Shown here: positions 21,550-60,958 of the stretch, one piece after another
Layout of the letters: each line of letters begins with the position of its first letter
Position numbering within the stretch: the stretch's first letter is position 1
NCBI GenBank assembly: GCA_951406725.2
Contig: OX597820.1
Span: forward strand, 107,074,001 to 107,138,000
Source: Octopus vulgaris
Lineage: Eukaryota
Length of the DNA stretch: 64,000 bases
Direction of reading: 5' to 3'
Notes under the pieces: generated by a model
The model's database searches: none
The model's input: only the letters and a program-made list of their open reading frames with translations
What the model was told of the DNA's origin: nothing
Translations under genes and position numbers: made by a program

Positions 21550-24500
21550 CATAAACACATAAATGCAAGTTGTCTGTTTGTGTCAAGTTACCATCAATAC
21601 CCGTTAACAAATTTTCATGAAACTTTGCAAACCTGTTCAAGTAACATCCAGTTTGTTACTTGGCTCATTGAAGTTTAATAAAAATCTACAATTTGATGGC
21701 TAGGGTGCCTAGAAGGGTCCACATATATAATCAATATATTTTCCTTTAAAAGCCAAAAACCTATTCATTTTTCTTTGATCACCCTAAACACTACCAAGCT
21801 CAAAGTTAATGGCCAATGGATGGAAATTGACAATAGGTGGATTGCATCCGACAACCCATTGCTGTCTAAAACATTGCAGGCCCATGTTAACAATATAAAA
21901 ATTATTAAATATGTATGTAAATACATCAATAAGGGCTTAGATATATGGCGGTTTTTGGACTTGAACAGGAGGGCAGGCAGGCAGATGAAATCCAGCAATA
22001 TAAGTTGGTCAGGTATATTTCCTCTAATGAGGGCTTTGAAATCCACAAGTGGCATCCAACAGTGGTATCTGTACATCTTGAAAATGGCCAGCATGTATAT
22101 TTCACAGAAGACAATGTGCAAAACGTAGTTCTGAATCCACGAGAAACCACTTTTGACAGCTTTCTTGAAATTATGCCAATGTGAATCTGTTTGCCTGAAC
22201 ACAATAGTATGTTGAGTATGTGTACTGTGTCTGGGCACATAGTAGATGGAACAGACGCAAGCAAGGAGCACGCATTGAGGTCTGGGAAGAATATGCTGTC
22301 TTCAAAAGTGGGGCCATCGGGCAGGTGTGTACTGTGCACCCTAATCAGCAGGAGTGCTTCTTTCTGTGTCTACTGCTGCACACTCTCAGACATTTGAAGA
22401 TACAATGGGGAAGTCTGCACAACCTACAGAGGAGCCTGAGCCAAACATGGGCTACTGAAGGATGATGCTCACTGGGACCAGACGTTGGATGAGGCAGCAA
22501 TCAGCAGGACACCAAGTCAACTGCACCAGCTATTTTCTATCATGTTCAAGATATGTGGCTTGGGTGAACCTCTTGAGCTTTTGGCCACCCAGAAAAACCA
22601 GCATGACAGAGGACATCCTACAAAGGATTTAAAGGCATACCACAGCGGAAATTACCACATTCACTAACGCCATTTACAATAAGGCATTACTCAATCTGGA
22701 CACCTGAGTGCAAGCTATGGGAGGTCAAGGCATTGCCACATTTGGTCTACCTCAACAGGAGCAGACAGCAAACAATCTCGCGAGAAATCAGCTATGACAT
22801 CATGGAAATGACGACATATATAGCTGATAACAAACTCAAACTGATTTAAGACCAATTGGGTGTTTATAAGACCATTATTTTGAGCACTGAAAGTGAAAGA
22901 GGAGGTCTTTTCTTTCTGGATGTTCCAGGTGGAACTGGCGAAACATTTTTCATCAACCTTCTTCTGGCTACACTGTGCCATATGAAACACATTGCCATAG
23001 CAGTGGCGTCAAGTGGAATATCTACAACACTGCAAAGTGGTGGCCACACAGCACATTCCTGTTTCAAATTCCCTTTGGACCTGTTCAAGAAAGAGACAGC
23101 AAACTACAACATCAATTGTGGTTTTCTAAAAGGCAAACTTCTGGATGAATGCAGGCTGATCATCTGGGATGAGGTGAAAATGAGCCATAAAGTTTCCTTT
23201 GAAGCTCTTGACATGGCCCTTCAGGATCTGAGACACAACACCAGGCTCATAGGAGGTGCCACAGTCATGCTGGCAGGAGACTTTAGACAAACCCTTCCCA
23301 CGGTTCCAAAGGGGACAACAGCTGATGAGGTAAATACCAGCATAAAGTTGTCCTACCTATGGAGCAGCATGCAAAAGCTGAGACTCACAACCAACATGAG
23401 ACTGCAGATCAGTGGTGATGATGCAGACAGAACCTTTTCAAAGCAACTGTTGGATGTTGGTAATGGCACTTCGGTTGGCAAGAAGGATGGCTGGGTATGC
23501 TTGCTTTTTGGACAGGTGGTATCTGAATAAGGTATTTCCTAACCTGAGGAATTAGTTTACAGACCACAACTGGCTGAAAACCCATGCCATTTTAGCTCCA
23601 AAGAATGTGGCAGTTAATGATTTGAACATTAAACTTCTGGAACAGTTACCAGGTGAGCATCACATCTACAATTCCATTGACACTGTACTCAACATCAATG
23701 AAGCTGTGAATTATCCAGCTGAGTATTTGAATAGTCTAACGCCACCCAGCCTCCCACCTCACAACTTGCACCTCAAGATTGGGGCAACAGTATTGCTGCT
23801 TCGAAACCTCAATCCACCAAAGCTTTGCAATGGCACACAACATAATAAAGAAGATGATGATAACAGTCTTGGGGACAACAGTTTTGACTGGTAAAGCATG
23901 TAGTGAGCCTGTAATCATTCCTAGAATTCCACTTATTCCCTGAGATATGCCTTTCAATTACAAGCACCTGAATTCCCATTGAAACTGAGCTTTGCAATGA
24001 GCATTAACAAGGCCCAGGGGCAGTCCTTGGACAAGTAGGTCTGAACCAGTTTTCTCCCATGGCCAACTTTATGTGGGATGCTCAAGAGTCGGCAATCCTA
24101 ATCATTTGTTTTTTTATACCCCACAATGAAAGACCAAAAATGTTGTTTATCAAGAATCTCTGCAAACTTAATAAGATTCACCAGATCATCAGGTATTTAT
24201 TATTTAACTCTAATATTTCTAAGTGTTTTAAATGTATTGATAATCTACATGTTATTTTATTTATAATTTACATGCAAATTTATTTGTATGTCTACCATAA
24301 AACTAAATGTCAGTCTGTTTCTACATTCATTGTAAATCTATTTCAATACAAGTGCCCCTGTATTCTCTGGGAACACTCAAAAGCCCTTTTCAGAGTTATT
24401 TACTTTGAATTGCTATCATCTCATATCCGATTAGCCTGTTACCACATAACAGGCTTCATGATTTTGGCATACATACATACCTTATTGATATTTCTTCCTA

Positions 24501-25677: not shown

Positions 25678-26572
25678 TCGCAAGAGCGACACTTGCGATG
25701 GTATGGTCATGTACTGCGGATGGATGAGGAGAGATGTGTGAAGAAGTGCCACTCCCAAACAGTTGAAGGTATCAGGGGGAGAGGTAGACCCAGGAAGACA
25801 TGGGATGAGGTAGTCAGGCATAACCTCAGAGCGTTGGGCCTCACTGAGGCAATGGCGAAGGACCGAGATCTCTGGAGATATGCTGTGACTGCAAAGACCC
25901 GGGCTGCTTCCTGCGCCAGTTCCGCATAGCCCCTGCCCATTCAAAGTACCCTGGATTCCAGAATATCCCGCTGTGCTTGAGGAGACCTGTTGAGTCAAGA
26001 ACATGAACATCGAAATATTCATCAATGGAAATAGTAGTTGTGATACCTGTGCCGGTGGCACATAAAAAGCACCATCCGAACGTGGCCGTTGCCAGCGCCG
26101 CCTCGACTGGCTTCTGTGCCGGTAGCACATAAAAAGCACCATCCGAACGTGGCCGATGCCAGCACCGCCCCGAGTGGCTTCTGTGCCGGTGGCACATAAA
26201 AAGCACCGTCTGAACGATGCCGATGCCAGCGCTGCCTCGACTGGCTCCAGTGCCGGTGGCACATAAAAAGCACCATCCGAACGTGGCCTTTTCCAGCGCA
26301 CCTTGGCTGGCTTCCGTGCTGGTGGCACATTAAAAGCTCCAACCGATCGTGGCCGGTGCTGGACCCCCCCCCCCGGCACCTGTGCAGGTGGCACGTAAAA
26401 AGCACCCACTACACTCACGGAGTGGTTGGCGTTAGGAAGGGCATCCAGCTGTAGAAACTCTGCCAGATCAGACTGGAGCCTGGTGCAGCCCCTGGCTTCC
26501 CAGACCCCGGTCGAACCGTCCAACCCATGCTAGCGCAGAAAACGGACGTTAAACGATGATGATGATGATGAT
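25678..26572 (+). mobile_element. 5'-truncated RTE LINE (C-terminus plus 3' UTR repeat array)
   Basis: LRWYGHVLRM..GRGRPRKTW motif; six ~67-bp units; ends ggacgttaaacgatgatgat. Confidence 0.92.
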
Positions 26573-26639
26573 GTATATATGATGAATTCTCTTGTTGTGA
26601 ATGGCAAATGAGGGTTCAATAAAATAAAGTGTTAATCAT

Positions 26640-37650: not shown

Positions 37651-37815
37651 ATATATGCTCATATATATATAAAATATACGTTATATGTATATATATAAAA
37701 TATATATTATATATATTATATATATATATATATATAAAATATATATTATATATATAAAATATATATTATATATATATTATATATATTATATATATTATAT
37801 ATATATATATATATA

Positions 37816-38375
37816 TCATCATCGTTTAACGTCCGTTCTCCATGCTAGCATGGGTTGGACGGTTTCGACCGGGGATCTGGGAAGCCAGAAGGCTGCACCA
37901 GGCTCCAGTCTTATCTGGCAACGTTTCTACAGCTCGATGCCCTTCCTAATGCCAACCACTCCGTGAGTGTAGTGGGTGCTTTTTACGTGCCACCTGCACT
38001 GGTGCCAGGCGAGGCTGGCATCGGCCACGGTCGGATTGGTGCATTTTATGGAAGCCAGTCGAGGCGGCACTGGCTTCGGCTACGATTTGGATGGTGCTTT
38101 TTACGTGCCACCGACATGGAAGCCAGTCGAGGCGGCGCTGGCATCGGCCACAATTTGGATGGTGCATTTTATGGAAGCCAGTCGAGGCGGCACTGGCTTC
38201 GGATGGTGCTTTTTACGTGCCACCGACACGGAAGCCAGTCGAGGCGGCACTGGCATCGGCCACAATTCGGATAGTGCTTTTTACGTACCTCCAGTCCCAG
38301 GGCCCTGGCATCTGCCGGGTGCTAGTCATAGGATTGGTTCAATTTCGATTTCACTTGCCCCAACAGGTCTTCGCA
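37816..38375 (-). mobile_element. RTE 3' UTR-only copy
   Basis: (CAT)n end and repeat units near-identical to 42853-43230. Confidence 0.88.
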
Positions 38376-39238
38376 AATATAAGTATATACATAATAATAT
38401 ACATACGCATAAGGTTACAGTTAGTCAAATCAATATACTAGAATATACATACACATATCCACATGAAAGTGTACATATACAAAGTCCAGAGTTCATTGCA
38501 TTATATTATAAAAGGCTATTAATATTATTATTATTATTAATAATACCAGTAAAAGAATATGTGCATTCAGCTATTCACAATACATAGTAGATGGAAAATA
38601 CCACATAAAATACAGCATCAGCATAATATAATACAATGCAGTATAGCACGCCAGTAAATTACTTAATTCAATATGATATATTCAATAAAATAAAATAAAA
38701 TAAAATAATGCCAAAATAATGTGTAATGTCACAATATACCATACCATTATAAGTATACATTATACAGCTAAAAATGACAAATTAGTATAAATCTACATAC
38801 ATATATATACACACAAGTACCAACTAACATGTACTTGCATATACATACATGTGCAACAGCATCCATTAATACAAATACATATATGAAGAAAAATTATTCT
38901 TTTACATCATACAAAATAACCAAACTATGCATGTATATACATACAGATCGCAGTTCGAACGGTGATTGATAGTTCTTAGCAGGCTGGTAGATAATTTAAA
39001 ATTTAAAGCTCAATTCAATTGGTTGGCACATATGAATTTCGATTGTTTTAGTTACGGTTGGTTGGTTAAGATACATTTACATACATACACACATATATGC
39101 GCACATACACACACACACATAGATAAACATAAGCACGAAAATACAAACTTTCATACATACAAACATACATACATACATAACTACATACATATATATCAAT
39201 ATATAAATATATATACATAAATCCATAAACCACCACGT

Positions 39239-41490: not shown

Positions 41491-41530
<40 letters not shown>

Positions 41531-41533
<3 letters not shown>

Positions 41534-42207
41534 TTAAATCCTTAAAAATGTTTTAGCCCGAAGGCTGCGGTCATGCTGGGGCACCACCGCTGAATGAGCT
41601 ACACTAATGTGAATCCACCTCTGATATGTGGCACTTGGTCAACAAGAGAGTTCGATGCTGCTGCCTGCATCTGCGTCTCCTGTCGTGAGGTAGGTTCATC
41701 TGGGACCCCAGACAAGAAGAGATCCAGTTTAGTTTTAAAGAAACCCACATCCACACCATGCAAGTCTCTCAGGCATTTAGGGAGGATGTTGAAGAGCTGT
41801 GGTCCTCTGAAACCCAAGCTGTTGCAGTATCTGGTCCTGTATTTGAAGGTGATGTTGAAATCTTTGGCACCATGCAGTGGTGCCCCGTTCTGTAGTTGGG
41901 GTAACTTTGAATGCCAAAGTTTGGGACAAGACCCTCCAGGACTTTCCAGATGTATATCACCGAATATCTCTCCAGCCTTCACTCTAGGGAGAAGTGTTTT
42001 AATACTTTCACTCTTTCCCAGTAGCTGATATGTTGCATTGAGACGATCTTCATAGTGTAGCTTCGTTGAATTGCTTCAAGTTCTGCTGTTAGCTTTGTAT
42101 TGTGTGGTGACCACAGTTGGGAGCAGTAGTCCAAGCGGCTGAGGACGAAAGTTTTCCAAAAGAGCATCAGTGTCTCCTTCTCTCTTGTTCTGAAAGTTCG
42201 GAGAAAA
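41531..42207 (-). mobile_element. 5'-truncated CR1-group LINE, (TTTAAGGA)n tail
   Basis: LRTFRTR..KTFVLSRLDYCSQLWSPH and GPQLFNILP..LR motifs; related to 51732-53068. Confidence 0.88.
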
Positions 42208-42210
42208 TAT

Positions 42211-42617
42211 ACTATTATTTTCCGGGAACGCTGCCGCTGTTCTCTTTTAGAGAGACTTAGTAATTTTAATATTTCTATTATTGAAAACAAGTGGATGTAT
42301 TCCACCGAAACTAGGTAAATAAAACCATCGAACAGAGATTGTCAGAAGCGACACCTACTGGCTGGCTACGCTGCATTGAAAAGGGGCAATACCCCGAAAC
42401 GCGTCTGTAGCTGCGGTCAAGTAGTGTGGAGCGACTGACCTCCCTTGTTCGAAGGTTATATGGATACAGTTTGTGTATCAAATAGCTAACTTAAGGCGAT
42501 GGCCTCATGGAGCTAATAAGCGGACAGCTTTATTCTTATTTTTATAAGAATGCCATATTTGTATGGCGATAACTATTATTTTCCGGGAATACTTAGTAAT
42601 TTTAATATTTCTATTAT
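42211..42617 (+). mobile_element. Direct-repeat-bounded Penelope-like/retrozyme-like unit
   Basis: actattattttccgggaa and acttagtaattttaatatttctattat occur at both ends; internal hammerhead; no ORF. Confidence 0.6.
42370..42411 (+). ncRNA. Minimal type I hammerhead ribozyme, U3-A8 core variant
   Basis: GCUGCA-UUGAAAA-GGGG(CAAUA)CCCC-GAAA-CGCG-UC/UGUAGC: 6-bp stem I, 4-bp stem II, palindromic ACGCGU stem III, GUC cleavage triplet. Confidence 0.8.
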
Positions 42618-42646
42618 ATATATATATATATATAATATATATTATA

Positions 42647-42784
<138 letters not shown>

Positions 42785-42852
42785 ATATATATATTATATA
42801 TAATATATATATTATATATAATATATATATTATATATATATATATATATATA

Positions 42853-45086
42853 TCATCATCATCATCATCGTCGTTTAACGTCCGTTCTCCATGCTAGCAT
42901 GGGTTGGACGGTTCGACCGGGGATCTGGGAAGCCAGAAGGCTGCACCAGGCTCCAGTCTTATCTGGCAGTGTTTCTACAGCTGGATGCCCTTCCTAACGC
43001 CAACCACTCCGTGAGTGTAGTGGGTGCTTTTTACGTGCCACCTGCACAGGTGCCAGGCGAGGCTGGCAACGGCCACGGTCGGATTGGTGTATTTTATGTG
43101 CCACCGGCACGGAAGCCAGACGAGGCGGTGCTGGCATCGGCCACGAGTCGGATGGTGCTTTTTACGTACCACCAGACCAGGGATCCTGGCTGGTTCAATT
43201 CGATTTCGATTTCGCTTGCCCCAACATGTCTTCGCAAGCAAGGGGGTTGGCATGGGTGCCTGTTGTACGGTCAGATTGGTGTATTTTACGTGCCACCGGC
43301 ACGGAAGCCAGTGGAGGCGGCACTGGCATCGGCCACGAGTCGGATAGTGCTTTTTACGTACCACCAGACCAGGGAACCTGGCTGGTTCGGTCGATTTCGC
43401 TTGCCCCAACATGTCTTCGCAAGCAAGGGGGTTGGCATGGGTGCCTGTCGTACGGTCAGATTGGTGTATTTTACGTGCCACCGGCACAGAAGCCAGTGGA
43501 GGCGGCGCTGGCATCGGCCACGAGTTGGATAGTGCTTTTTACGTACCACCAGACCAGGGATCCTGGCTGGTTCAATTCGATTTTGACTTCGATTTCGATT
43601 TCGCTTGCCCCAACATGTCTTCGCAAGCAAGGGGGTTGCATGGGTGCCTGTCGTCGGATGAGGTTCTATATCGACTTCGCTTGCCTCAACAGGTCTTTGT
43701 GTCCAAGGGAGGAAAGGCATTCATAAGTGGGCTGGGCTCACTTGTCCTGCCTGGTCTTCTCACGTACAGAATATTTCCAAAGGTCTCGGTCGCTGGTCAT
43801 TTCCTCAGTGAGGCCTAAAGTTCGAAGGTCGTGCTTCACCACCTCGTCCCAGGTTTTCCTGGGTCTACCTCTTCCACGGGTTCCCTCAACTGCTAAGGAT
43901 TGGCACTTTCTCACACACCTATCTTCATCCATTCTCGCCACATGACCATACCAGCGCAATCGTCTCTCTTGCACACCACAACTGATGCCTCTTAGGTACA
44001 ACATTTCTCTCAAGGTGCTAACGCTCTGTCGAGTATGTACACTGACATTACACATCCATCGGAGCATACTGGCTTCATTCCTCACGAGCTTACGCATATC
44101 CTCGGCAGTCACGGCCCATGTTTCACTGCCATGTAGCATGGCTGTTCGTACACACGCATCATACAGTCTGCCTTTTACTCTGAGCGAGAGGCCTTTAGTC
44201 ACCAGCAGAGGTAAGAGCTCCCTAAACTTTGCCCAGGCTATTCTTATTCTAGCAGTTACACTTCTCAGCGCACCCACCCCCACTACTGACTTGGTCACCT
44301 AGATTCAGCTATCAACTACTTCTAGTTTTTCCCCTTGGAAAGTGACAAGTTATTTTCTGCAGATTTTCGGAGGTTAATGCTCCTGAGCATCTGCCACATA
44401 CAAAAACTATCTTCCCAGTTAGCCTACCTTTGACATTGCTGCACCTCTTATGTGTCCATAGCTTACACTGGGTACATCTTATAGAGTTTCTACCTACACC
44501 TTTTCTACAGATCGAGCAGGGCCATCTTCCTGAAGACATTTGTGGATTGTCTACCTTCCTACTTATTAGTACTTTGGTTTTAGCTAGGTTGACTCTAAGG
44601 CCCCTCAATTCTAAACCCTCCTTCCACACCTGGAACTTCTCCTCCAGCTGTGATAGTGACTCAGCAATAAGAGCAAAGTCGTCAGCGTAGAGGAGCTCCC
44701 AGGGACAACCTGTCTTGAATTCCTCCGTAATTGCCTGTAGGACGATAATAAATAGGAGGGGGCTGAGTACTGAACCCTGGTGGACCCCAACCTCTACTTT
44801 GAATTCTTCTGTGAACATGTTGCTAACCTAACCTTACTTACGGCATCTCTGTACATGGCTTGCACAGTCCTCACCAGCCATTCATCTATCCCTAGTTTCC
44901 TCATTGATCACCAGATAAGGGATCGGGGGACCCTATCAAAAGCTTTCTCCATGTCAACAAAAGCCAGGTACAGGGGCTTATCTTTGGCTAGGTATTTCTC
45001 CTGCAGCTGCCTTACCAGGAATATAGCATCCGTGGTACTTTTCCCTTGCACGAACCCAAACTGCATCTCATCTAAACTAACTCTCT
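42853..45086 (-). mobile_element. Relatively young RTE LINE cut by an assembly gap
   Basis: GVHQGSVLSPLLF, LYADDF, PHD-like Cys/His cluster, LRWYGHVARM; a few frameshifts; long 3' UTR with three ~185-bp repeats; (GAT)n tail. Confidence 0.95.
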
Positions 45087-45479: not shown

Positions 45480-47894
<2,415 letters not shown>

Positions 47895-48260: not shown

Positions 48261-49550
48261 GAGGGGCGTTCAATAAGTAATGCCCCTGACCCACTTCCCA
48301 TAGCAGTAGAGCGACGAAACTTGGCACAGTTATTAGTATTTTTCTACATAGGAACCACCAAGAGTTACGCATTTCTCCCATCGTTTGATGCAGCTCTGAA
48401 GACCGTTTTTGTAGAAGACCCCAGCTTGGTCCTCCAACCACGATGTGACTTCAGAAATCAAGGCTGCATCATCTGGGAAACACTTTCCTTTCAAAAACAA
48501 CTTCATGACTGGGAAGAGGTGAAAATCAGAGGGTGCAAGGTCAGGAGAGTAGGGAATGGGGGAGGAGTTCATAGCCGCATGCCTGTGCTTCTGATCTGGC
48601 GACACGTGAGTTGTGGACCGGAGGCGTTGTCCTGCAAGGAGGATGCCTTTGCTGATCTTGCCCCGCCTCTTGATTTTGATAGCTTCTCTTAATTTCCTCA
48701 AAAGTGAAGCATAATAGGCTCCTGTAATTGTGACACCCTTTGCCAGGAAATCTGTCATCACTACTCCGTCCTGGTCCCAGAAGACTGTGAGCATGACCTT
48801 GCCAGCAGCGAGGGCTGCACCCTTGCCTTCTTTGGAGGAGGTGAGTCAAGGTGCTGTCCACTGCATTGACTGGGCTTTGGTCTCTGGATCATAGTGATGG
48901 AACCAGGTTTCATCCTGTGTAATCAGTATTTTGAAAAATTTTGACTCATATTCTTGGCACATCTCCAAATTCATCCTCGAGCAATCGACGCGTTCTTGCT
49001 TCTGGAAAGTGTGAGCAGCCTGGGAATTCATCTGGCAGACACCTTTTGCATATGCAAATGGTCATGAATGATAGTTTCCACAGACCCAGTACTAATCTTG
49101 ACCTCATGGGCTATTTGGCGAATAGTTATGCGTCGATCTTCCAAAATGGCAGCCTCAACTTGACGGACAGATGCCTCATCAATGGCAGAAGGCGGCGACC
49201 AGATCTGGGAGCTGTTTCCACAGAGTTCCGACCATGTTTGAATTCACGATGCCAGCGTTTTACAAGGTCATATGATGGGGCATCATCACCATAAGTTACT
49301 TTCATTTCATCAAAAGTCTCCCGTGGTGTGCGTCCTTTCAAATACAAAAACCGGATCACTGCTCGATACTCAACAGGCTCCGTTTCACACTTGACTCAGT
49401 TCAAACACCTGTAAATCAGAAACCACAATTAGTTCAGAGCTGTGATTTGCCACTTAATCTATAGAGATATAAATAATTGTACATGCAAAATTTCAGCTAG
49501 ATCAAATAACTGCAAGTGGGTCAGGGGCATTACTTATTGAACGCCCCTCG
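48260..49550 (-). mobile_element. Full-length mariner transposon with frameshifted transposase
   Basis: Perfect TIRs cgaggggcgttcaataagtaatgcccctgacccactt, TA on both sides, 1291 bp; motifs RSGR, QDETW, VFWD, YSPDLAPSDFHLF; the expected start codon reads ACG. Confidence 0.95.
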
Positions 49551-51555: not shown

Positions 51556-51731
51556 AACATAGCTGACACTACTTTGAGAAGTTATAATTTATATATCAGA
51601 ATGATGAACAAATGGGATATAAAAATACATATATAATTATGCATTTATAAAAGAACGTATTTATGTATAATGTATATATGTTTAATGTATGTATATAAGG
51701 TATGTATCATGTATTTACATATAATGTATAT

Positions 51732-53068
51732 AGCTGCCTTACGCAGCTGTTACAACACTACGACTGGGTACTGAAACAACTACTGGATCGCTCACAGGTG
51801 GATGTGGTATATCTCGACTTTGCGAAGGCCTTTGACAAAGTCGACCACGGAGTGATATGTCACAAATTACTCAGACTCGGCATAACAGGAAAAGTAGGTG
51901 AGTGGATACATGACTTCCTGAAGGACAGAAGCCAGATGGTTGCAGCCAATGGAGCCCTCTCGGGAAAGACACCAATAGCAAGCGGGGTGCCACAGGGCAC
52001 AGTCTTGGGACCCTTGCTGTTTTTGGTGGCGCTCTCTGACATGCCCTTGGTAGCACAAACAACATCCCTCACTAGCTATGCTGATGACACAAAGGTAGCA
52101 CAGGCAATCAAAAACCCAGCTGATGCTGACCTTTTACAAGATCTGGATGCCATATACAAATGGGCTGAAGACAACAACATGCAATTTAATGCTGGTAAAT
52201 TTCAAGCCTTACAATATCAAGCTGTAAACACATATACATTACAACACAACTATACTGGTCCAGGAGGGATCGAAATCCCAGTATCGAAATCAATACGGGA
52301 CCTGGGGATAGACATGAGTGATGATGCATCTTTTTCTTCACACATCGCGAAGGTGGCGACAATGTGCAGACGACTCACTGGCTGGATCCTGAGGACATTC
52401 CGGACAAGAGACTGCGAGACCATGTTGACACTATGGAGGACATTTGTCCTAAGCCGCCTGGACTACTGCTCCCAACTGTGGTCACCGCATAGTGTCAAAC
52501 TAACCACAGAGTTTGAGACAATCCAAAGACATTTCACCAAGAGGATTTCCACCATGAAAGAAAAGAACTATTGGGAGAGGCTTAGGGAACTCAATTTGTA
52601 CTCCTTGGAACGAAGACGAGAGAGATATGCAGTGATATACATATGGAAAATCCTGGAGGGACTAGCACCAAATTTTGGAATTGAGAGCTGTTCCAATCCC
52701 CGTACAGTACGTCACTGTGTGGTGCCAAAGGTCCCGTCTTCCACATCCAGGGTAAGGAGCAGATACTGTAATAGCCTGGGGTTCAGGGGCCCTCAGCTGT
52801 TCAACAAACTGCCAAGAAAACTAAGAGATCTACATGATGCGGATGTGGACATTTTCAAAAAACATCTAGACAAGCTGCTTTCCGGGATCCCAGATGAACC
52901 CACTGCAAGGTACGAAGGTAACCTAAGGGCAGCAGCTACAAACTCTCTCTTAGATCAGTGGCCAGCCACGGCAAACTGGACTTAGAGAGGGTAGCAACAA
53001 GGGCGGTGCCCCAGCATGGCCTCAGCCGGATGGCTGAAACAAGTAAAAGAGTAAAAGAGTAAAAGAGT
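51732..53068 (+). mobile_element. 5'-truncated CR1-group LINE with uninterrupted RT/C-terminal ORF (to 52985) and (GTAAAAGA)n tail
   Basis: YLDFAKAFDKVDH, SGVPQGTVLGPLLF, YADDTK, RDLG, LDYCSQLWSPH; open frame of over 400 codons. Confidence 0.95.
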
Positions 53069-58134: not shown

Positions 58135-58963
58135 AGGATGATCCACTGAATGTGTAATGTCAGTGTGCACACACAGCAGAGTGTAAGTGCCCTGAGAGAA
58201 ATGCTGGAAGCATTGGATGTGGCGTGCAAGAGAGACGTCTGCACTGGTATGGTCATGTACTACGGATGGATGAGGAGAGATGTGTGAAGAAGTGCCACTC
58301 CCAAACAGTTGAAGGAATCCGGAGTAGAGGTAGACCCAGGAAGACATGGGATGAGGTGGTCAAACATGACCTTCGAACGTTGGGTCTCACAGAGTCAATG
58401 ACGAAAGTCGAAAGACCGAGACCTCTGGAGATATGCTGTGACTGCAAAGACCTGACAAATAATGTGAGTTCATGGCTGTTTCCTGCACCAGCTTCACATA
58501 GAAGCCTCAGCCCATCCAAAGTACATTGGATCGCAGGATGGCCTGCTGTGCTTACCTTGGATCGTAGGGTGACCTGCTGTGCTTGAGGAGACCTATTGAG
58601 TCAAGTACATCAACGTCAAAATATATATCAGATGGAAATTGTAGTTGTGATACCTGTTCCAGTGGCACGTAAAAAGCACCATCCAAACATGGCCAATGCC
58701 AGTGCCGCCTTGACTGGCTTCCGTGCTGGTGGCACTTATAAAGCACCAACCGATCATGGCTGTTGCCAGCCCCTCCTGGCACCTGTGCTGGTGGGACATA
58801 AAAAGCACCCACTACACTCACGGAGTGGTTGGCGTTAGGAAGGGCATCCAGCTGTAGAAACTCTGCCAGATCAGATTGGAGCCTGGTGCAGCCTCTTGGC
58901 TTCCCAGACCCTGGTCAAACCGTCCAACCCATGCTAGCACGGAAAACGGATGATGATGATGAT
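58135..58963 (+). mobile_element. 5'-truncated RTE LINE
   Basis: LHWYGHVLRM..GRPRKTW; three 3' UTR units; (GAT)n tail. Confidence 0.9.
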
Positions 58964-59594: not shown

Positions 59595-60377
59595 TTAGAT
59601 TTTTATCATTGAACTTCTTTCTATATGTGTTCTCATATAATAACATAACAGGGAATTCCCACACATTTCACAGTGATATGGTTTATCATTCAGATGAGTT
59701 TTTATATGTTCTTTTAGATGGGAATTTTGAGAAAAATCTTTCCCACAGATTTCACAGTGAAAAGGCTTTTCTCCAGTATGTATTTTGATGTGTTCTTTTA
59801 AATGGGAATTCCGAGAAAAATCCTTTCCACAAATTTCACACTGGAAAGGTTTCTCACCAGTATGGATTTTGATGTGTTCCTTCAGATAGGAATTCTGAGA
59901 AAAGTCTTTGCCGCATATTTCACAATGATATGGTTTTTCTCCTGTGTGTGTTTTAATATGTTCTCTAAGATGAGAATTCCGGGCAAATTCTCTTTCACAT
60001 ATTTCACAATGGAAAGGTTTCTCACCAGTATGAATCCTTATGTGCCTCTTTAATGTTGAATTATCAACAAAATCTTTACCACAAATATCACAGTGAAATG
60101 GTCTTTCTCCAGTATGTGTCCGTATGTGTCGGCTTAATAAAGAGTTTCGGGAGAATTCTTTCCTACATAACTCACACTGGAAAGGTTTCTCCCCAGCATG
60201 GGTTCTTATATGTTTCCTCAGATAAGAATTTAAAGCAAAACGTTTCCCACAAAGCTCACAGCTAAAAGCTTTCTTTACAACATGGGTTTTTAAATGCATT
60301 CTTAAATCCCTTTTCAATGTGAAATTTTTACCACAAATTTCACAATGAAATGGTCTTAGAACTGGATCTTGTTGCAT
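59595..60377 (-). CDS. C2H2 zinc-finger protein: 8 intact fingers plus 1 degenerate, no effector domain in this exon
   Basis: 260-aa ORF of CxxCx12Hx3H repeats with TGEKP linkers; splice acceptor tttttttttag at 60511-60510, so the exon starts at 60509; candidate AATAAA at 59344-59339. Confidence 0.93.
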   Translation of the reverse strand: MQQDPVLRPFHCEICGKNFTLKRDLRMHLKTHVVKKAFSCELCGKRFALNSYLRKHIRTHAGEKPFQCELCRKEFSRNSLLSRHIRTHTGERPFHCDICGKDFVDNSTLKRHIRIHTGEKPFHCEICEREFARNSHLREHIKTHTGEKPYHCEICGKDFSQNSYLKEHIKIHTGEKPFQCEICGKDFSRNSHLKEHIKIHTGEKPFHCEICGKDFSQNSHLKEHIKTHLNDKPYHCEMCGNSLLCYYMRTHIERSSMIKI

Positions 60378-60958
60378 CCTGCTTCCAAAAGAAAGTGTTT
60401 TTTTTTATAAAAAGTTTCTTCAATGTAGAAGTGTCAGTAATTTCAAAAACACTGTATGCAAGTCATCGGTAAGTGTCTGTATGAACTGTGAAATCTCCAA
60501 TTTCAAAATCTAAAAAAAAATTAAGAAATCATTTTAAATGTTGGCATCAAAATTTTCTTTCGATTTCAAGACAAAAGACATACAACACTACTTTTACATT
60601 ATGAGTGACCAATTTCTTCAAATAGAATAACATGTTGGTGTTTCACAAGCGTTCTTTGACACATGAGTCTATTTTCCAATGATAGTAGTTATGAATCTGC
60701 TACCAACACTCACTCAAAACTGTAACCTTTTCAGATATATAGAATAATTTATTTTAGCACCTCTCAGAGATCCTGATTGCAGTTAGCAGTAATAAATATC
60801 AGTCAAAATATTATCTAAAATAGGATTTAAAGAAATATTCTTCACAGCAAAATGAAGTAAACTAAATATACAATTTCACTGAGTAACTCTTTTCACTGTT
60901 ATCAATAAAAAATTTACTTACAAGAATGTTCTATAACAAGAACAGTTTAAAAAAGATA

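Follow-up and report, generated by a model that had tools for sequence, protein, structure and literature searches.

The element at 42211-42617 of the 64-kb window, i.e., of the whole stretch of Octopus vulgaris DNA that was analysed, is with good probability a dispersed copy of a high-copy family of 361-362-nt hammerhead ribozyme units arranged head to tail, likely a non-LTR retrozyme and thus a non-autonomous retroelement. That the family as such is a retrozyme is highly probable in our judgement, and cleavage by the common family form of the hammerhead is rather likely. This kind of element is known already, including from a mollusc (mussel, 350-390 nt), and the swap in the ribozyme core has been published before, as the retrozyme and hammerhead papers cited below report. 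The locus itself holds 1.1 units with a single ribozyme (Table 1).

Table 1. Features of the element and its flanks, with positions in the window
Feature	Position	Strand	Basis or remark
5'-truncated LINE 3' fragment, flank outside the element	41532..42205	-	RT C-terminal region, broken frame
AATAT, in neither LINE nor monomer	42206..42210	.	loose ends at 42205 and 42211; presumably a TA target remnant
Full 361-nt monomer, non-coding, 41% GC, highly self-paired	42211..42571	+	exact repeats, ORF scan, fold, joint 42571->42211
Distal extension of helix I, 42355-66 with 42413-24	42355..42424	+	one base absent behind 42413 in this copy
Internal loop 1, UAC side	42367..42369	+	compared by sequence with the loops given in PMC2632901
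Type I hammerhead motif	42370..42411	+	sequence, descriptor scan, fold
Predicted self-cleavage site	42405..42406	+	after GUC, C17 = 42405; hammerhead consensus position
Second monomer start (46 nt), internal 26-to-1 nt replacement	42572..42617	+	sequence, repeats; recurring loose ends
(TA)n microsatellite at the right end of the element	42615..42853	.	sequence; presumed insertion target
LINE, presumably RTE-like, with (CAT)n tail, flank outside the element	42854..45086	-	far side of the same TA tract

The hammerhead and its repeat unit

Helix I of the motif pairs GCUGCA (42370-75) with UGUAGC (42406-11) over 6 bp, helix II pairs GGGG (42383-86) with CCCC (42392-95) over 4 bp and is closed by loop 2, CAAUA, and helix III has 2 bp with a 2-nt loop, formed by the palindrome ACGCGU (42399-404). 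The core UUGAAAA at 42376-82 runs from U3 (42376) through U4, G5, A6 and A7 to A8 (42381) and A9 (42382), the residues G12, A13, A14 and A15.1 are GAAA (42396-99), and C17 is 42405; apart from positions 3 and 8, where the pair has covaried to U3-A8, all positions agree with the type I hammerhead core. A descriptor of type I hammerheads that accepts either core pair (C3-G8 or U3-A8), composed after the motif had been seen, gave one match on the forward strand and none on the reverse strand of the window, and in block-wise dinucleotide shuffles of the window (n=150) strict matches came up 0/150 times and loose matches 2/150 times. The sequence and the absence of strict matches in the shuffles confirm the initial annotation, which had read 42370-42411 as a type I hammerhead with a UUGAAAA core and these stems. 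The local 42-nt fold has z = -1.9, and a search of Rfam (E<=5 over 5 kb and E<=10 over 181 nt) detected neither a hammerhead nor any other family of relevance; the miss is probably due to the shortness of helix III and to the two changed core positions.

Canonical metazoan type I hammerheads are described in PMC4209133 as having a helix I of 6 bp, a helix II of 4 bp and a helix III of 1-2 bp with a palindromic loop of 2-4 nt, whereas the minimal Penelope hammerheads of S. mansoni have a helix II of 7-8 bp, a helix I of 4-5 bp, one additional base ahead of helix II, a loop 1 that is ill defined and a palindromic helix III, dimer cleavage being proposed for them (PMC4209133). For the S. mansoni ribozyme with the internal loop UCCA:GUAC and the loop 2 CAAAUA, Dufour et al. 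(PMC2632901) name three key features, i.e., the first U and the last extrahelical pyrimidine of loop 1 and the unpaired 3' A of loop 2. All three residues are present in the octopus motif as U42412, C42369 and A42391, the 3' A of loop 2, and their contact is predicted. As in the canonical S. mansoni form, loop 1 starts with U and ends with UAC, loop 2 keeps the C...A opposition and ends with UA, and helix III is short and palindromic; unlike it, the octopus loop 2 is CAAUA (5 nt) and not CAAAUA, and the core is U3-A8. Since helices of 6/4/2 bp are combined with Schistosoma-like loop residues, the ribozyme is predicted from its sequence to be of the canonical, tertiary-stabilised metazoan type I form and not of the minimal Penelope type to which it had been assigned at first.

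The U3-A8 change noted at the outset stands, but it had already been described in nature and reported to be active in vitro (PMC3088659, PMC4209133). Cervera and De la Pena (2014, PMC4209133) counted about 1,300 matches with U3-A8 in S. mansoni, whose Cercyon Penelope-like elements hold a U3-A8 family. The octopus motif shares the covariation and the palindromic helix III with these minimal hammerheads, yet it has neither their helix sizes nor their extra base nor their ill-defined loop 1, and unlike in the Cercyon elements no linked RT/GIY-YIG ORF stands beside the octopus unit. Perreault et al. (2011, PMC3088659) found U3-A8 in several natural hammerheads and cited earlier in vitro activity; the compensatory change is the same, but theirs are "several examples", whereas in octopus a high-copy tandem family has it as its common form. 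Such a family offers a natural high-copy testbed for the U3-A8 core within a full-length hammerhead.

The repeat unit is delimited by exact direct repeats of 18 nt (42211/42572, spacing 361) and 27 nt (42255/42591, spacing 336). In the second copy the equivalent of 42229-42254 is absent, with a single T instead, and its right end, 42617, is the equivalent of 42281 in the first monomer. When the monomer is taken as a circle, Met-started ORFs reach 38 aa at most, and stop-free stretches 65 aa; the spacings and ORF lengths bear out the proposed ORF-free unit of about 360 nt with direct repeats. The linear fold of 42211-42617 has z = -8.4, a value inflated because a palindromic repeat joins the two ends, and the circular monomer fold has z = -6.9 (60 shuffles). 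No further copy of the unit was found within the 64-kb window; a 17-nt match at 1288-1304 was rejected as the end of an unrelated interspersed repeat. A B-box-like GTTCGAAGG with one mismatch lies near 42448 in the unit, by eye without a clear A box.

The family in public sequencing runs

At least 0.69 of the sampled words were present in 20 of the 24 public runs listed (12 studies, 6 organism codes). In four of these 20 runs (X1, which may be the source sample, X3, X10 and X11) contigs were aligned to 42120-42618, which gave 4468 (X1), 40, 2084 (X3) and 9 contigs with the LINE flank included. The summed depth over the unit is mostly 1e5-2e6 in X1 and X3, with single contigs listed at about 30-110, which indicates a high-copy family of 361-362 nt, depth being no copy number. 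Differing flanks among the aligned unit contigs point to dispersed as well as tandem copies. Head-to-tail joints occur in 4/4 runs, leading from 42571 to 42211 in X10 and X11 and from 42576 to 42216 in X3, and variant joints lead from 42576-42589 back to 42241-42249 in X1, X3 and X10 (e.g., 42578 to 42241). One 392-nt contig of X11 (record 18), which differs from the window at 1-2 places, forms a closed loop of an entire 362-nt monomer with the motif, and tandem DNA accounts for this loop as well as an RNA circle does. None of the runs listed as containing the words is given as an RNA run; X10 may be one, but it contains LINE pieces too and tells nothing about expression either way, and the contigs are unstranded. 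The unit and its tandem copies thus proved to be high-copy, with 361-nt joints in all four runs. Together with the conserved core and helices, these joints and many copies uphold the initial description of the locus as a monomer-plus-overlap copy of a retrozyme-like family.

Conservation of the core and of stem pairing among the copies was checked in the same four runs. Among the substitutions listed, no variant of at least 4% falls on U3 or A8, a place covered in 4/4 runs. The listing holds the best 40 of 49 rows, 7 of which lie in the LINE and were dropped; the remaining 33 in the unit comprise 14 at unpaired positions, 10 that keep a pair, 3 whose partner also varies so as to pair and 6 that break a pair. 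Among the 17 commoner variants, seen in at least 10 contigs, 8 are unpaired, 7 keep the predicted pair and 2 break it, against 5.3 breaks expected under the same substitution spectrum (P=0.03). Both common variants in helices I and II preserve pairing, the one at 42373 turning G.U into A-U in helix I and the one at 42393 turning G-C into G.U in helix II, and at 42417 G.U becomes G-C. True compensation, such as that of 42357 with 42422, is suggested by tables from which linkage is absent. Degenerate copies exist too: in record 14 of X10 (depth 20.2 of 88.3) G12 is changed, 42400 is deleted and several pairs are broken, including some in the helices. Contigs and loose ends of X1, X3, X10 and X11 contain divergent unit subfamilies (about 80-90% alike) over 42430-42522 and 42340-42362, and 42216-42240 is strongly variable among the unit copies.

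The copy in the window differs from the common family form behind 42413, where a base is inserted in the contigs (C, sometimes T). The depth of this insertion is 107,638 in X1 and 107,506 in X3, that of the alignments crossing 42415 is 108,853 and 107,908, respectively; since the two nearly agree, nearly all spanning contigs presumably carry the extra base. In the table itself it has ratios at 42413 of 31-32% (X1, X3) and 76-77% (X10, X11). In ViennaRNA predictions helix I of this copy has P=0.16, its 3' strand being slipped and paired with GGCUAC (P=0.84); once the common base is put in behind 42413, helix I rises to P=1.0. Without that base this copy is therefore predicted mostly to misfold, and with only one ribozyme at the locus it would not release a circle by itself. 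The locus is probably a dispersed inactive monomer, a dead end, of a family whose common form is modelled to fold correctly. The word "intact" in the initial annotation holds for the presence of the motif but not for the distal helix I, from which one base is absent.

Two isolated cores co-fold as a double hammerhead at -31.9 kcal/mol versus -12.9 kcal/mol per monomer. For a complete tandem dimer folded as a double hammerhead the energy exceeds the minimum by 9.3 kcal/mol in this copy and by 7.5 kcal/mol with the common base, both being energies of secondary structure alone. Dimer cleavage is therefore possible and is not favoured by secondary structure alone.

Ends, flanks and competing explanations

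The unit ends with TATTAT against the (TA)n microsatellite. Among the loose ends listed for X1, at least 40 contigs (not necessarily 40 loci) end at 42281 and continue with (AT)n; a depth step follows 42281, clear in X1 and weak in X3, and in X10 single contigs stop in non-AT sequence at 42277 and at 42280. Lying 212 nt downstream of the predicted cut, the right end seems to recur as an end of the family, and its recurrence against (TA)n suggests target-primed insertion of the Penelope type, a (TA)n bias being described for Penelope-like elements in PMC8557442. No target-site duplication is readable in the microsatellite, and both flanks are TA-rich; in non-LTR retrozymes such duplications, where they occur, are longer than 4 bp. 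The truncated LINE on the left has 61-66% aa identity to a LINE at 51699-52985, and its 3' end adjoins another (TA)n tract (41497-41531). In 4/4 runs the LINE contigs run on beyond 42203-42205 in LINE sequence, and LINE and unit are therefore independent; moreover, the upstream part of the truncated LINE was not found elsewhere in the 64-kb window, so this is not simply a case of one LINE cut in two by the unit, with its other half close by. On the simplest reading the LINE fragment, the unit and the LINE on the right, which we take to be RTE-like, are three insertions into one TA microsatellite. The ORF of the right-hand LINE at 44312-44827 has 6 protein matches at E<=1e-55, two of them unnamed (80% and 70%), one from Octopus vulgaris (75%), one from O. 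bimaculoides (64%) and two from Hydractinia (58-60%). No ORF for a Penelope RT with GIY-YIG was found beside the unit at this locus, where the adjoining ORFs belong to the two LINEs.

A pattern of the core, helix II and helix III with positions 3 and 8 left free found two loci in metagenome contigs, L001 (WNGL01048539.1, 1-1775) and L002 (Ga0209126_1043486, 1-1339). They are distant look-alikes sharing only about 30 nt with the octopus motif, and both have C3-G8 and, outside the pattern, a 6-bp helix I that differs in sequence and yet pairs; the scaffold therefore exists with either pair. Both hammerheads share the helix II stem and the helix III of the octopus motif. That of L001 follows an RT ORF at a distance of about 720 nt; this ORF, of 338 aa, is open at the 5' end and has no obvious in-frame C-terminal endonuclease. 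By its motifs we take this RT to be of the Penelope type; its matches were to generic RT only, with no class given. In L002 a further copy of the first approximately 115 nt stands at 1225-1339 and a partial one at 955-1053, which may mark a tandem unit of about 1.2 kb or a pseudo-LTR. Pattern scans gave 0 matches in viral contigs and 0 in genome contigs; 7 viral-contig loci for a looser U3-A8 pattern were dropped as chance matches, being without the family scaffold on inspection.

The likeliest competitor regards the unit as the pseudo-LTR (pLTR) of a Penelope-like element that is autonomous and of which 5' truncation left a terminal repeat here, solo or partly in tandem. The location of the hammerhead, about 210 nt upstream of a right end that adjoins (TA)n, would suit it, as would the position of the L001 hammerhead behind an RT ORF, and the first animal U3-A8 hammerheads were those of the S. 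mansoni Penelope-like elements (PMC4209133). We nevertheless consider it unlikely: monomer-to-monomer joints are present in 4/4 runs along with a closed whole-monomer loop, the architecture of the hammerhead is canonical rather than minimal, and the unit has no ORF, the adjacent ones coming from the two LINEs. A preprint (bioRxiv 10.64898/2026.07.22.740005) argues that animal retrozymes derive from Penelope pLTRs, and a pLTR may therefore fit the origin of the family, even if not its present state.

Alternatively, the family might be an inert minisatellite with a fossil hammerhead, spread at the DNA level by unequal crossover and extrachromosomal circles and not via RNA. Degenerate copies such as record 14 of X10 and the predicted misfolding of the present copy are in line with this, and the same preprint reports that most of the Xenopus retrozymes assayed did not cleave in vitro, only 1/9 dimers being cleaved (bioRxiv 10.64898/2026.07.22.740005). 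However, the common variants avoid breaking RNA pairs (P=0.03) and include swaps from G.U to Watson-Crick pairs, the core positions are constant among them, and a recurring end at (TA)n suits target-primed insertion better than DNA slippage, all of which makes an inert minisatellite quite improbable.

It is very improbable that the ribozyme belongs to the neighbouring LINE, either as a 5' processing ribozyme or through a template-switching chimera. The unit does begin 5 nt from the truncation point of the LINE, but the two have opposite orientations, both adjoin TA tracts, the LINE contigs pass 42203-42205 in LINE sequence (4/4 runs) and the unit contigs enter another monomer, by which this reading is largely refuted. 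A chance match, for which the silence of Rfam and the modest z of the local fold might be cited, was already refuted at the motif level by the 0/150 strict shuffle matches and the tertiary-loop residues, and with the conservation in the family and the C3-G8 look-alikes on the same scaffold its probability is negligible. A viroid-like or HDV-like circular replicon was rejected as well, there being no minus-strand hammerhead and no Rfam ribozyme match, and the family being genomic and high-copy.

Proposed cycle and relation to known retrozymes

Metazoan non-LTR retrozymes are described in PMC7229834 as tandem non-coding monomers of 150-450 nt with a GC content below 50% and one canonical type I hammerhead per unit, with lengths of 220-245 nt in coral, 350-390 nt in mussel and 330-350 nt in axolotl; their predicted circle is self-paired and leaves the ribozyme domain free to fold (PMC7229834). 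Dispersed single-unit copies occur too, according to the preprint cited above (bioRxiv 10.64898/2026.07.22.740005). The octopus family matches these retrozymes in size, GC content, tandem arrangement, self-pairing and one ribozyme per unit. It differs from those described in having U3-A8 for C3-G8, without a listed reversion, in a right end fixed at (TA)n and in its octopus host. The coral, mussel and axolotl retrozymes are known experimentally, whereas the cleavage and the circles of the octopus family are predicted.

By analogy with the coral, mussel and axolotl retrozymes (PMC7229834), we hypothesize that tandem arrays would be transcribed on the forward strand, that each hammerhead would cut after C42405, either alone, stabilised by its tertiary contact, or paired through the ACGCGU palindrome into a double hammerhead, and that the monomers would be circularised by a host ligase, for instance RtcB. 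The chance that circles of the family RNA accumulate is about even. Reverse transcription would be supplied by an autonomous element, again as proposed for the retrozymes in PMC7229834, and we lean slightly towards Penelope machinery as what mobilises the family. A Penelope-like RT/endonuclease would nick the (TA)n tract and prime on the RNA segment UAUUAU, the equivalent of 42276-81 and 42612-17, and copying of more than one unit from a circle or an uncut multimer could yield a 1.1-unit insert running through the cut site. The insert starts 195 nt before the cut, crosses it and exceeds one unit, and a linear monomer reaching from cut to cut could therefore not have been its template; it must have come from a circle, from an uncut multimer or, at the DNA level, from an array. 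The full picture, i.e., an active retrozyme with abundant circular RNA, a whole family on a U3-A8 core in a canonical scaffold, and insertions with a fixed 3' end, (TA)n micro-homology and more than one unit copied through the cut site, is offered tentatively and is doubtful when taken as a whole.

If it were true, the insertion footprint would identify the mobilising Penelope-like partner and would reveal rolling reverse transcription of an RNA circle, a retrozyme step so far only proposed. Reviews find in animal retrozymes no motif that betrays which retrotransposon moves them, and a recurring end against (TA)n would be a concrete handle on this question. The initial annotation knew of no element of this sort characterised in cephalopods. 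The mostly open-access literature searched likewise yielded no characterised cephalopod retrozyme, though the supplements of PMC7229834 and PMC4209133 may list cephalopods, nor a family of retrozymes in which the U3-A8 core is fixed; but hammerheads as such had been noticed in the group, 235 Rfam Hammerhead_1 matches having been counted computationally in the giant squid genome (PMC6962438). With the octopus family the range of the retrozymes, which experiments have shown in coral, mussel and axolotl, would come to include the cephalopods.

Elsewhere in the window, 2.7 copies of a 185-bp repeat lie at 43075-43583 in the 3' region of the right-hand LINE, with relatives at approximately 26040-26580, 37800-38380 and 58650-58960, and a second long TA tract follows downstream at 45491-46363. 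ORF fragments at 21697-23894 presumably resemble a Helitron Rep/PIF1 helicase, and we take an ORF on the reverse strand at 48333-48845 to resemble the C-terminus of a mariner transposase. The reverse strand also contains, at 59595-60404, an ORF of 269 aa with tandem C2H2 zinc fingers, whose best identity among the 120 matches listed is 53%.
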